Assembly: GCA_964453345.1 (NCBI GenBank) | Contig: CAYVOC010000010.1 | Location: 8,752 to 44,860 of the forward strand | DNA: 36,109 bases | DNA from: an uncultured Aquificales bacterium | GTDB taxonomy: Bacteria > Thermosulfidibacterota > Thermosulfidibacteria > Thermosulfidibacterales > Thermosulfidibacteraceae | Reading direction: 5' to 3' | Position numbers and translations under genes: made by a program | In this document: in pieces, positions 97-10,992 of the stretch | Numbering within the stretch: position 1 is the stretch's first letter | How the letters are laid out: each line of letters opens with the position of its first letter | Notes under the pieces: generated by a model | Told to the model about the DNA's origin: nothing | What the model saw: the letters and a program-made list of their open reading frames with translations, nothing else | The model's database searches: none

Positions 97-531
97 CTGA
101 TGGTGGCCAAGCTTATAGGGGAGCAAAAGAAAATAAAGGAGCAGGTTGGGGGCCTGAGCCACACGGTTGGATATGTTCTGGAGGACAGGGCCTACAGGGG
201 ACTTCCGCCCCTTCTTGAGAGGGACTTCGGGCTGAAGGTGGAAACGCTCAAAAGGGATTATGTGGAGGTTTTGCCTGGAAGGTATGAGGAGATAAATATC
301 ATAGGCTACGGCTTCAGGGGATCTGAAAGGGTATGGATTCTTGGCGATTGCAAGACTCAGCTTAAAAAGAGGGATGTGGATAACTTCCTGAAGCTTTTGA
401 AAAGAGTAGAGCACATGTTTGTGGGTGAGAAAATCGTGGTCTTTGCCACCTATCAGGCTTCCCCTCAGGTCAGAAGATACGTTGAACAGAAGGGGTGCAA
501 GATATACTTCTCCTACGAGTTTCCCCTTTAA
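1..531 (+). CDS. Partial (5'-truncated) coiled-coil repeat protein with C-terminal PD-(D/E)XK-like domain (DUF3782/'chordopoxvirus fusion-like' type, common in thermophiles)
   Basis: Frame +1 is open from base 1: NELAEAQKKTEQRLDELAQRV-NELAEAQKKTEL... continuing into the 100..531 ORF, which has motifs VGYVLED, EINIIG and ILGDCK. Confidence 0.7.
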   Translation, partial: NELAEAQKKTEQRLDELAQRVNELAEAQKKTELMVAKLIGEQKKIKEQVGGLSHTVGYVLEDRAYRGLPPLLERDFGLKVETLKRDYVEVLPGRYEEINIIGYGFRGSERVWILGDCKTQLKKRDVDNFLKLLKRVEHMFVGEKIVVFATYQASPQVRRYVEQKGCKIYFSYEFPL

Positions 532-7880: not shown

Positions 7881-8746
7881 AAAAGGCGCACATACTTCTC
7901 GAGGCGCTTCCCTATATACGGGAGTTCTACGGGAAGACCGTTGTTGTCAAATACGGCGGACACGCCATGGTGGATCAGGCCCTCAAGGAGAGCTTCGCCA
8001 AGGATATCGTTCTCATGAAGTATATCGGGATCAACCCCATAGTGGTTCACGGAGGCGGCCCCCAGATAGGTGAAACCATGAAAAAGATGGGGAAAAAGCC
8101 AAAGTTCATCGATGGGCTGAGGGTTACGGACAGCGAAACCATGGACATAGTGGAGATGGTTCTGGGAGGCAAGGTTAACAAGGAGATAGTGGCTCTGATA
8201 AACAAGCACGGGGGTGCCGCAGTAGGGCTTACCGGCAAGGATGGGCTGCTCTTTTTTGCTAAGAAGCTTTACCTTGAAAGGAACGCTCCCCAGACCCAGG
8301 CGCCGGAGGTGATAGATCTGGGGCATGTGGGGGAGGTGGTGAGGGTTGATCCATCAATACTGGATATTCTCGCAAGGGAGCGCTTCATCCCGGTCATAGC
8401 CCCCATAGGCGTTGATGAGAATGGTATAACCTACAACATAAACGCCGACTGGGTGGCGGCAAAAATAGCCGGTGCGGCAAAGGCCGAAAGACTCATCTAC
8501 ATGACCGATGTTGATGGCGTTAAGGACAGCCAGGGCAGTCTTATATCCTCTCTGAAGGCGGAGCTTGCAGAGAAGATGATAGAGAACGGAACGGTGTCCG
8601 GGGGGATGATTCCGAAGATCCGGGCGGGTATCAGCGCCCTGGAAGAGGGGGTTAGAAAGGTCCACATAGTCAACGGAACCATCCCCCATTGCATAATCCT
8701 CGAGCTCTTCACCGACAGCGGCATAGGAACGGAGATCGTTCTCTAA
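7853..8746 (+). CDS. argB: Acetylglutamate kinase (start may be 7862)
   Basis: [35 protein letters not shown] and GGMIPKI. Confidence 0.96.
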
Positions 8747-9363
8747 TGGGACTTTACGTGGCCTTTGAGGGAATAGAGGGCTGTGGGAAGACCACCCTGG
8801 CAAATCTCTTTTGCAACTGGTTAAAGCAAAAGGGAGAGAGGGTCGTTCTCACAAGGGAACCCGGTGGAACGGATCTCGGCAGGAGATTGAGGGAGCTGCT
8901 CCTCTTCTCCGACCCCTCCCCCATGGCGGAGCTCTTCATATTCCTTGCCGACAGGGCAGAGCACATAAAAAAGCTGGTCAAGCCTTCCCTGGATGCGGGA
9001 TTGTGGGTGGTATCCGACAGGTGCTTCCTTTCAACCCTCGCCTATCAGGGATACGGCAGGGGTATTCTTGATCTGGACAGATTGAGGGATCTCTGCCGCC
9101 TTTCCGCAGGTGGCCTTGTGCCGGATTTGATCTTCCTCATAGACGTGGATCCTGAAGTGTCCCTTGCCCGCATAGGAGAAGCCGACAGAATAGAGTCCGA
9201 ACCCATAGAGTTTCACAAAAGGGTGAGAAGGGGCTACCTCAAAGAGGCAAAGCGCTTGAAGGCGGTTGTCCTTGACGGCAGAAACAGTCCTTCAGTGTTG
9301 CTGAATCAGGTTATCGATTCTGTGAACCAGATGCTTGCCGCATCAAGCGGTAAAACCACTTGA
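8746..9363 (+). CDS. tmk: Thymidylate kinase
   Basis: FEGIEGCGKTT, TREPGGT, ADRAEH, SDR and LAYQG. ATG overlaps the argB TAA (TAATG). Confidence 0.95.
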   Translation: MGLYVAFEGIEGCGKTTLANLFCNWLKQKGERVVLTREPGGTDLGRRLRELLLFSDPSPMAELFIFLADRAEHIKKLVKPSLDAGLWVVSDRCFLSTLAYQGYGRGILDLDRLRDLCRLSAGGLVPDLIFLIDVDPEVSLARIGEADRIESEPIEFHKRVRRGYLKEAKRLKAVVLDGRNSPSVLLNQVIDSVNQMLAASSGKTT

Positions 9364-9788
9364 TGCGATAGATCCCTAAGATCGGCTTCCTTTACCGTCC
9401 TGTCTCCCAGATCCATGAGGGGTAAGAGCACAAACAGCCTTTTGTTCCATTCAGGGTGAGGGATCTGGAGCCTTTCCGATTTATAACTACCCCCTGACCA
9501 GAAGATAATATCAAGATCAATAACCCTTGGCCCCCATCTGGGGCCCGTTCTCCGTCCCATGCGCTTTTCGATACTCTTACAGAGATCCAGCATCCCCTCC
9601 GGATCTATATGGCATCTGCACAGAACCGCTGCGTTCAAGAACCAGGGCTGGGGAGGGCCTACAGGTTCTGTAAGATAGACCCGCGAGGCCTTCAAGATGC
9701 GAACCTTGCTCTGCAAAAGCTTAGCGGCCTCTATCAGGTTTCTGAGCCTGCCGTTCAGGTTCGATCCTAAGCCGATCACGTAATCCAT
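9306..9788 (-). CDS. folK: 2-amino-4-hydroxy-6-hydroxymethyldihydropteridine diphosphokinase
   Basis: IGLGSNL, FLNAAV, RWGPRVIDLDI, IPHP and FVLLPL. Confidence 0.95.
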   Translation of the reverse strand: MDYVIGLGSNLNGRLRNLIEAAKLLQSKVRILKASRVYLTEPVGPPQPWFLNAAVLCRCHIDPEGMLDLCKSIEKRMGRRTGPRWGPRVIDLDIIFWSGGSYKSERLQIPHPEWNKRLFVLLPLMDLGDRTVKEADLRDLSHQVVLPLDAASIWFTESIT

Positions 9789-9806
9789 TGTGCGAATAGT
9801 AAAGGC

Positions 9807-9867
9807 TGGCGGAAGGGCATGGGAATCGAACCCACCGAGCCGCCCTCTCCGACGGCTCCACTGGATT
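9807..9867 (-). repeat. Exact 61-bp duplicate of the 3' portion of tRNA-Sec (att-like direct repeat)
   Basis: tggcggaagggcatgggaatcgaacccaccgagccgccctctccgacggctccactggatt is identical at 9807-9867 and 10546-10606. Identity runs from the CCA end into the anticodon loop. Confidence 0.95.
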
Positions 9868-9915
9868 CAAAATTCAATTCCAGCCAGCACACTTTTACCA
9901 GCAGAGACCACCAAT

Positions 9916-10314
9916 TCAATTAGAACCACATATTTTCCTCAGGCGCTCATCAAAGGTAAAAAGTTTCCCTTTTTGCCTTTTAGCTTTAACACACAAGAAA
10001 CAGTCAAGCAGACTGAGGCCAGAACTTTCGAGAAATAGATCGAAAGCCTCAATCAACACCTTCTTATCTCTGTTGACCGTGCCCTTGTAAAGAACGAGTT
10101 TTTTAAGAACCTCAGCGGCTTCCTTGGGCGGAACGCTGTAGGTTTTCGTAAGCACATAGAAGGTTTCCAGCAGAACCTCAGCAAGGAGAATAACCTTCTC
10201 TCGTCCCTCCCTTACAGCTTCAAACAGAAGCCGGGCCTTCTCGTAATGCTCCTTGTTGTCTGCCAAAAGGTAACGCAGAATAACGTTGGTATCAGGAAAG
10301 GTCACGGTATTCAT
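9916..10314 (-). CDS. vapC: PIN-domain toxin (VapC family ribonuclease)
   Basis: Acidic catalytic motifs are intact: PDTNVILRYL, EVLLE, SLLDC and TFD. 132 aa. Confidence 0.9.
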   Translation of the reverse strand: MNTVTFPDTNVILRYLLADNKEHYEKARLLFEAVREGREKVILLAEVLLETFYVLTKTYSVPPKEAAEVLKKLVLYKGTVNRDKKVLIEAFDLFLESSGLSLLDCFLCVKAKRQKGKLFTFDERLRKICGSN

Positions 10315-10528
10315 CGGCTACCTTCTGCCAGGCTTCCCCTCTCTCTTCCTCGTAAGACAGGCCCTTTTTGGCGTAGTTCCTGAAGACCCCGCCCAGATCC
10401 TCCACAGGTTCTATCACAATCTTATCCCCAACCAGGCGAAACCGCACCACATTTGTTTTTAGAAGATTGCGAAACCTTTTGGGAATGGTTACCTGTCCTT
10501 TGGGAGAGATCTTTACCACTGCATCCAT
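10292..10528 (-). CDS. vapB: AbrB/MazE/SpoVT-family antitoxin (VapB)
   Basis: VKISPKGQVTIPK...GDKIVIEP swapped-hairpin motif; overlaps the PIN gene by 23 bp; SD GAGGT upstream. Confidence 0.88.
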   Translation of the reverse strand: MDAVVKISPKGQVTIPKRFRNLLKTNVVRFRLVGDKIVIEPVEDLGGVFRNYAKKGLSYEEERGEAWQKVADEYRDLS

Positions 10529-10545
10529 GACTTACCTCGGAATAT

Positions 10546-10643
10546 TGGCGGAAGGGCATGGGAATCGAACCCACCGAGCCGCCCTCTCCGACGGCTCCAC
10601 TGGATTTGAAGTCCAGGGGGGGCACCAGCCCCCTCGCCCTTCC
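10546..10643 (-). tRNA. selC: tRNA-Sec (anticodon UCA)
   Basis: GGAAGGGC...CTGGA-CTTCAAA-TCCAG, long variable arm GAGCCGTC/GGCGGCTC, T-loop GGTTCGATTCC, 8-bp acceptor stem, G discriminator plus CCA; 98 nt. Confidence 0.96.
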
Positions 10644-10652
10644 GGGTTCTGT

Positions 10653-10681
10653 TAATTACATCTCAGTTCTGGCTTTTTCAA
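10653..10681 (-). promoter_or_regulatory. Putative sigma70 promoter for selC
   Basis: Minus strand TTGAAA-N17-TAATTA, 9 nt upstream of the tRNA 5' end. Confidence 0.5.
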
Positions 10682-10992
10682 GGTCTGTGGCGTTTGGGGA
10701 TCATGCGGTGGTATTTTTCTTTGAGATTCTGGATCTGTCTTTTCTCTTTTTTGAGGCACTTTAACAGCTCTTCTCTTGTGTCAGCGTCTTTTATGCAGTC
10801 GATGGCTTCCTGCACGATTTCGATCTTCTCTTGTAGAATCTTCTCTCGTATCATGTGTCGCTTTAGGATCATCTGCTTGCGCTCCGCAAAGGGCATGGCT
10901 TTTTTGTTGTGACCCATGGCGCTGCTGTAGGCTATGCTGCCTGAAAGTATGATTGCTGCTGTTGCAAAGGCCGCTATGACTTTTGAACGCAT
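10678..10992 (-). CDS. Small exported helical hypothetical protein
   Basis: Signal-peptide-like N-terminus (MRSKVIAAFATAAIILSGSIAYS), charged helix with two Cys; SD AGGAGG. Confidence 0.7.
   Translation of the reverse strand: MRSKVIAAFATAAIILSGSIAYSSAMGHNKKAMPFAERKQMILKRHMIREKILQEKIEIVQEAIDCIKDADTREELLKCLKKEKRQIQNLKEKYHRMIPKRHRP

Follow-up and report, generated by a model that had tools for sequence, protein, structure and literature searches.

The DNA analysed here, hereafter called the window, is a stretch of 36,109 nucleotides (G000:C10) from a 1.5-Mb genome assembly, G000, which comprises 64 contigs and is 99.9% complete. Comparison of the window sequence with itself revealed an exact direct repeat of 61 nt (9807-9867 and 10546-10606), one copy of which forms part of an intact tRNA-Sec gene, while the other lies in front of folK, with a vapBC toxin-antitoxin (TA) operon between the two. 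The features of the locus are, in order of position:

9306-9788, minus strand: folK (HPPK; PF01288, 120.4 bits), the chromosomal flank past the partial tRNA copy
9807-9867, minus strand: repeat copy 1, an orphan tRNA-Sec 3' part recognized by exact identity, the attR-like end, 18 nt ahead of the start of folK
9868-9915, no strand assigned: non-coding arm of 48 nt from the vapC stop to repeat copy 1 (sequence reading)
9916-10314, minus strand: vapC toxin, a PIN-domain ribonuclease of 132 aa (PF01850, 64.3 bits)
10292-10528, minus strand: vapB antitoxin of 78 aa with an AbrB/MazE fold (PF04014, 28.9 bits)
10529-10545, minus strand: spacer of 17 nt from the tRNA CCA end to the vapB ATG, too short for a promoter and with a GAGG motif for ribosome binding (sequence reading)
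10546-10606, minus strand: repeat copy 2, the part of the functional tRNA from A37 to CCA (61-nt identity with 9807-9867)
10546-10643, minus strand: intact tRNA-Sec gene (selC) with anticodon TCA and encoded CCA, the attL-like end (ARAGORN; Rfam RF01852, 82.7 bits against a gathering threshold of 47)
10678-10992, minus strand: ORF of 104 aa without Pfam or NCBIfam match, the chromosomal flank upstream of selC

The repeat and the genes it encloses

Beyond the 61 nt there is no extra identity on the CCA side (0 nt) and an abrupt stop on the anticodon side; a repeat search returned the pair at 94% over 70 nt, with a start-to-start distance of 739 nt. An exact 61-mer occurring twice within 36 kb excludes chance. 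Read on the tRNA strand, the first base of the repeat is A37, directly after the anticodon, and the last is the final A of CCA. The limits of the repeat thus coincide with landmarks of the tRNA, which makes the duplicated segment the part that an element has to bring along if the tRNA is to be restored after a crossover in the anticodon loop. An earlier reading of the window, made from the sequence only, had described a perfect 61-bp repeat from the anticodon loop of tRNA-Sec to CCA, which sequence identity, ARAGORN and Rfam bear out, and had seen in its limits the tRNA att signature of tyrosine-integrase islands, a claim supported by the A37 and CCA boundaries. As in such islands, a 3'-part tRNA direct repeat is found together with an intact tRNA gene at one end of the insert.

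The orphan copy alone reaches 29.7 bits with RF01852, below the gathering threshold (47), and selC is the only one of the 40 tRNA genes of G000 with an internal partial copy. SelA is encoded in the host genome (521.9 bits in a profile search); tRNA-Sec is therefore needed and selC must stay functional. On the other side of folK, the plus-strand tmk gene (end at 9363) and folK (end at 9306) are convergent, with a 3' overlap of 58 nt.

Between the repeat copies lie 678 nt made up of vapB, vapC and 65 non-coding nt (48 at 9868-9915 and 17 at 10529-10545), and ORF and Pfam analyses thereby confirm the content first read from the letters. The GC content of the cassette is 46.3%, compared with 51.7% for the window. 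VapB scores slightly below the cut-off of the TIGR01439 AbrB domain (27.5 against 28.3 bits). The VapC acidic residues D8, E46, D104 and D122, which we take to be the catalytic set, are invariant in an alignment of 6 sequences, and the two genes overlap by 23 nt (10292-10314). With a PIN toxin that carries its acidic residues, and the gene for a small DNA-binding antitoxin ahead of it in one operon, the pair is predicted to be a VapBC system of type II.

In the 48-nt arm, TCCAG (9879-9883) can pair with CTGGA of the repeat (9861-9865) across 13 nt, mimicking the anticodon stem, which in the genuine tRNA-Sec reads CTGGA-7 nt-TCCAG. This stem mimic may be a feature of a core-type site, albeit as a weak hint, the chance of such a 5-mer within about 20 nt being roughly 1-2%. 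The arm also contains the 11-mer TTCCAGCCAGC (9878-9888), which has a single occurrence in the 1.5-Mb genome. A cmscan full-length alignment suggested that the arm might be a decayed tRNA 5' half, an idea rejected because many shuffles (448 of 2000) and window tiles (852 of 1950) score as high. Likewise, 16 nt of the arm recur exactly in L030/L006, but within a coding region and in the other orientation, and this match is ascribed to chance.

The genes selC, vapB, vapC and folK, and the orphan copy, all have the same orientation. A scan for sigma-70 promoters and terminators between selC, vapBC and folK gave none, with counts not above those of shuffled sequences, albeit the promoters of this phylum may differ. 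From the common orientation and the lack of a predicted promoter or terminator we infer that vapBC is probably transcribed from the selC promoter; folK would retain its old leader after the insertion.

Occupied and empty forms in independent assemblies

The stretch is present in eight public runs from five studies, which are hydrothermal-vent metagenomes where labelled. Contig layout covered the runs X1, X2, X6 and X7 (not X3, X4, X5 and X8), and stretches uncovered in X6 and X7 were excluded as evidence. Run contigs break inside the repeat, and no joints were obtained, because k=31 cannot bridge 61 nt; in X1 and X2 the cassette forms a single 738-nt unitig (9838-10575). Two JGI metagenome contigs, L031 and L032, were retrieved with a 24-mer over the folK-leader/repeat junction.

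Over its 1073 nt, L031 is colinear with window 9534-10606 and 99.44% identical to it; of the 6 mismatches, one falls in repeat copy 2. The contig spans copy 1 and extends as far as the end of copy 2, and thus represents the occupied form. Since a separate assembly gives the same order, the repeat is not an artefact of the G000 assembly, a danger that the earlier reading had itself pointed out. An artefact, whether a graph loop read once or a free 739-nt circle together with an empty site, could draw on the ambiguity of a k=31 graph at a 61-nt repeat, where the contigs of all four runs break save where low cover removes a branch. It is nevertheless very improbable: G000 and L031 agree on the order while 6 SNPs apart, one X6 contig (10401-10632) connects vapB with the tRNA 5' half by way of the repeat, and a replicon of 739 nt that lacks any gene for replication is hardly plausible.

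In L032 (1977 nt), a stretch of 1963 nt is 99.24% identical to window 7905-9867 (argB, tmk, folK and the repeat), with 15 mismatches. Where the cassette arm would follow folK and the 61 nt, the contig has TGAAGTCCAGGGGG, the anticodon and the beginning of the tRNA 5' half. The terminal 75 nt are identical (100%) to window 10546-10620, and the contig stops within a G run, 14 nt beyond the repeat. Judged by this sequence, L032 is the empty selC-folK junction, with folK directly preceded by the tRNA, the contig reaching 14 nt past the repeat. The earlier reading had predicted such a junction, and a precise empty site in a close relative is thus found, followed for 14 nt beyond the repeat. Because the empty junction occurs in a strain of more than 99% identity, gain or loss is recent; the earlier reading had taken the identity of the copies to point to recent insertion or active maintenance. 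L031 and L032 have no shared flank variants in their overlap, so that gain and loss are not distinguished by SNPs.

The unitig depths of the four runs were:

X1: cassette unitig 7.4; folK-side flank 14.1; selC-side flank 17.6
X2: cassette unitig 36; folK-side flank 61.6; selC-side flank 72.1
X6: cassette about 5; folK-side flank 5.4; selC-side flank 4.6-4.8
X7: cassette 2.4-3.3; folK-side flank 4.0; selC-side flank 5.5

By unitig depth, a coarse and indirect figure that is unsuited to ranking, the cassette has about half the depth of its flanks in two of the four runs (X1 and X2), about the same depth in X6 and about 0.6 of it in X7. The half depth in two of four runs fits a mixture of occupied and empty cells. 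Vent populations would accordingly hold both alleles, the empty one being either ancestral or the product of recombination between the 61-nt copies.

Recombinases, relatives and other junctions at selC

ORF and Pfam analyses detected no recombinase gene within the element; an integrase gene, as found inside classical islands, is lacking. Two PF00589 matches were obtained in G000, both on contig C37 and both of Xer type: one gene matches the XerD model (321 bits), and the other, which precedes hslV-hslU, the XerC model (324.8 bits). Both proteins pass the 'tyrosine recombinase' subfamily cut-off but stay below that of the integron-integrase model (265 bits), with 150.8 and 154.4 bits. Serine recombinases (PF00239) gave 0 matches in this 99.9% complete genome. 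With no recombinase in the element, and only XerC- and XerD-like proteins in the genome, the unit is non-autonomous and has no resident helper in the assembly. The genome-wide search for recombinases thus sustains the description of the island as integrase-less. More than two PF00589 matches, some of them fragments, were found in 12 of the 17 other genomes of the phylum, which indicates that integrases circulate in it.

The phylum was represented by 18 species genomes, in which partial selC copies were sought by DNA search, the list obtained with the Rfam model being swamped by other tRNAs. A tRNA-Sec DNA match was found in 14 of the 18, and a full plus a partial selC only in G000. The arrangement is consequently not fixed across the phylum; fixation, with no empty site or larger variants, would have counted against the earlier reading. 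In the genomes G001-G003 selC has other neighbours, with neither folK nor the 104-aa ORF nearby, and this difference in neighbours precluded an empty-site alignment at genus level. The downstream neighbours of selC in the loci of 6 relatives are ordinary genes, with no cassette hotspot. In another genus, contig C118 of G008 (L023) starts with the last 31 nt of tRNA-Sec (1-31) followed by a GGDEF-type gene, the assembly breaking inside selC.

VapC relatives were found at 6 loci of the genome collection, with 55-67% identity, the best in Thermodesulfobacterium hydrogeniphilum, and none among viral contigs. VapB homologues of 52-57% identity adjoin the VapC homologues. One of the 6 loci adjoins a tRNA gene (Arg-CCT), and at none of them (0 of 6) is there a tRNA-derived flanking repeat; the TA-only cassettes flanked by tRNA 3' repeats that the earlier reading proposed to look for elsewhere are thus not among the VapC-relative loci. 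The locus next to tRNA-Arg(CCT) is G011:C70 (L005/L029, 514-1850), where a vapBC homologue (59% and 57%) lies against the tRNA. There, the 3' ends of vapC and of the tRNA gene, which lie on opposite strands, share about 20 nt, no tRNA repeat was seen, and the next ORF (155 aa) resembles, by eye, the C-terminal part only of a CapD-type sugar epimerase. The 23-nt vapB/vapC overlap is also kept in this 57-59% identical homologue (L005 945-967).

Searches of the viral and genome contig collections with a 28-mer over the attR junction and a repeat-specific 31-mer gave 0 other matches. In the same collections there was no larger element with the same att arm or vapBC, no second copy, no sister cassette and no tandem array; the larger islands with the same att that had been anticipated did not appear among them (0 matches). 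An apparent second case in G000, a 48-nt copy of tRNA-Arg(TCT) at the start of contig C59, proved to be merely an overlap with the end of contig C32. The end of C32 (14342-14418) is the exact 3' end of tRNA-Arg(TCT), and C59 1-48 are the last 48 nt of that tRNA; the assembly is therefore interrupted at this tRNA, possibly because of strain variation.

On the other hand, the selC 5' half was also found joined to other DNA. In X1, X2 and X6, which belong to three studies, there is a contig in which the selC 5' half passes into unrelated DNA at 10603. The X1 contig with this junction apparently shares the upstream flank of G000, since it feeds a unitig continuing to 11208. The 10603 junction may represent a different insertion at the same crossover point. 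Its loose-end sequence is absent from G000, from the relatives' loci examined and from the genome contigs (30-mer, 0 matches).

A further junction was seen in G005, a genome of a sister genus, in which contig C57 (L021; 1-320) carries only the 5' 40 nt of tRNA-Sec (280-319, minus strand). After CUUCAAAU, past the anticodon loop, this 5' half gives way to foreign DNA, in which a convergent DUF2283 gene (62.4 bits) stands at the contig start. The foreign DNA carries TTCCAGCCAGC, the 11-mer of the cassette arm, found this once more beside the selC junction. An intact tRNA-Sec was not found in G005 (88% complete), despite the presence of SelA. A search for junctions of the G005 type in genome contigs returned 5 matches, namely that of G005 itself and 4 without a tRNA, which are put down to chance.

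Origin and present state of the insert

The best reading of the unit is that of a non-autonomous integrated islet with the vapBC operon as its only cargo, of the kind represented by CIMEs and decayed islands. It would have entered selC by site-specific recombination of the tyrosine-integrase type, with the crossover on the 3' side of the anticodon loop. The tRNA copy that now completes the working tRNA, from position 37 to CCA, would have come in with the element itself, and the original tRNA 3' part would have been displaced by 739 nt, to the front of folK. Without a recombinase, and in a host with XerC and XerD only, the unit cannot move by itself today.

As to how the 739-nt form arose, a leftover of a larger element after deletion appears most likely, and we lean towards regarding the present unit as such a remnant. 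Decay is a common fate of islands and the unit matches the definition of CIMEs (PMC5704250), while tRNA-integrated remnants, some listed with vapBC, occur in Sulfolobus (PMC3718332). The addiction module would be the one part that could not be lost without killing the cell, and selection would forbid deletion of the TA pair. On the other hand, the collections searched contained no larger relative that shares its arm or its vapBC, and the unit is free of pseudogene debris. Decay to exactly a TA pair and 65 nt needs a well-placed deletion, which must moreover fit within a time that has left the repeat copies identical.

Alternatively, the 739-nt unit could be a purpose-built minimal cassette moved in trans by the integrase of another element that visits selC, a possibility that we regard as real but unlikely. 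Such a cassette would consist of a promoterless TA operon and a 126-nt attachment region (the 48-nt arm, the tRNA 3' part and the 17-nt arm), and would be excised as a circle, inserted into selC and expressed from the selC promoter, as integron cassettes are from Pc. The extreme compactness of the unit, which is free of debris, has its genes close to both ends and has vapB beginning 17 nt past CCA, speaks for it, as do the identical repeats, the strain polymorphism at more than 99% identity and the CTGGA-13 nt-TCCAG mimic of the anticodon stem in the arm. The same crossover is also used in other insertions, namely the 10603 contig in three of four runs and the G005 junction with its shared 11-mer and DUF2283 gene, and most of the 17 other genomes of the phylum have additional integrases of phage type (12 with more than two PF00589 matches, some of them fragments). 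Against these points, there is a single example, with no second copy, other cassette with this arm or tandem array in the collections searched; no helper integrase was identified and none is present in G000; and the link through the 11-mer is post hoc.

A bolder proposal, which we put forward with still greater reserve, is that selC in this vent lineage is a live cassette dock, receiving a TA mini-cassette that uses the back half of tRNA-Sec as its recombination site and is expressed from the tRNA promoter. With equal reserve, the helper integrase would be carried by the element seen as the selC 5'-half junctions at 10603 and in G005, at the same crossover.

It is improbable that no site-specific recombinase was involved, and that vapBC arrived by illegitimate or homology-driven recombination, for example upon uptake of DNA from another lineage, with a piece of selC duplicated by accident. 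This would suit a genome without any integrase, and spread from strain to strain by homologous recombination in the flanks requires none. However, accidental duplication leaves unexplained why the limits are the tRNA landmarks (position 37 and the CCA end) with 0 nt of extra identity, and the layout is that of a classic anticodon-loop att. Such sites were reportedly classified by sublocation within the tRNA, the anticodon loop included, by Williams in 2002.

That the host XerC and XerD move the unit, as in IMEX elements, which exploit Xer recombination at dif-like sites, is highly improbable: the XerC- and XerD-like proteins are indeed the sole tyrosine recombinases in G000, but known IMEX use dif-like sites, whereas the site here is a tRNA anticodon stem-loop in which no dif-like 11-6-11 layout was noticed by eye.

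To return to the integrated islet, arguments on whether TA pairs persist as selfish addiction modules usually draw on plasmids and large islands; here the module makes up the element by itself. Occupied and empty alleles coexist in near-identical wild strains, with limits known to the base, and this base-precise polymorphism makes three ideas testable: that the TA pair blocks loss between the 61-nt repeats, that an integrase in trans moves a 739-nt att-flanked unit, and that a tRNA promoter drives a TA operon. The case also carries a warning for annotation, as island finders that require an integrase miss such islets.

Comparison with known systems

CIMEs, represented by the Streptococcus ICESt1 family, are defined as elements that keep attL and attR and have lost their integration and transfer genes (PMC5704250). 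The same combination, both att ends kept and integration and transfer genes gone, is found here. As in CIMEs and decayed tRNA islands, the insert lies between attL- and attR-like copies of the 3' part of its target, is non-autonomous and has a tRNA regenerated at one end. Unlike CIMEs, it measures 739 nt and holds a TA pair only, no parent ICE, IME or phage is known, no accretion partner adjoins it, and its host belongs to a small phylum of thermophiles from vents.

In E. coli, selC harbours LEE, PAI-I, SHI-2 and retronphage R73. The insert shares with such selC islands and prophages the target, the direct repeat of the tRNA 3' part and the restored tRNA. In contrast, selC islands range from kilobases to tens of kilobases and have, or once had, a P4-type integrase next to the tRNA, of which the insert has neither gene nor trace. 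The role of selC as an integration site of LEE is stated in PMC6174562.

Islands stabilised by TA systems are exemplified by HipAB on CGI48 in Shewanella (PMC8978831), and degenerate tRNA-integrated remnants in Sulfolobus are in some cases listed with vapBC (PMC3718332). Both resemble the insert in that a TA pair lies inside a tRNA-integrated element, where it is expected to oppose loss. However, in CGI48 and Sulfolobus the TA is one pair among many genes, whereas here it is the whole element. A TA-only, sub-kilobase, att-flanked unit in selC was not found in the literature covered (that is, outside supplements and subscription journals).

Chromosomal integrons include TA cassettes, and their cassettes use the integron integrase and an outside promoter, Pc. 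By analogy, the insert may be likened to these cassettes, being of similar size and consisting of one promoterless operon with one recombination site that would depend on an outside integrase and promoter. Unlike them, it has as its site the 3' part of a tRNA, not an attC hairpin, and is without IntI, attI and an array; neither attC nor an integron integrase with attI nearby was found. Should selC nevertheless prove to be a live dock, the insert would represent a tRNA-anchored counterpart of integron cassettes, caught as a natural occupied/empty polymorphism.
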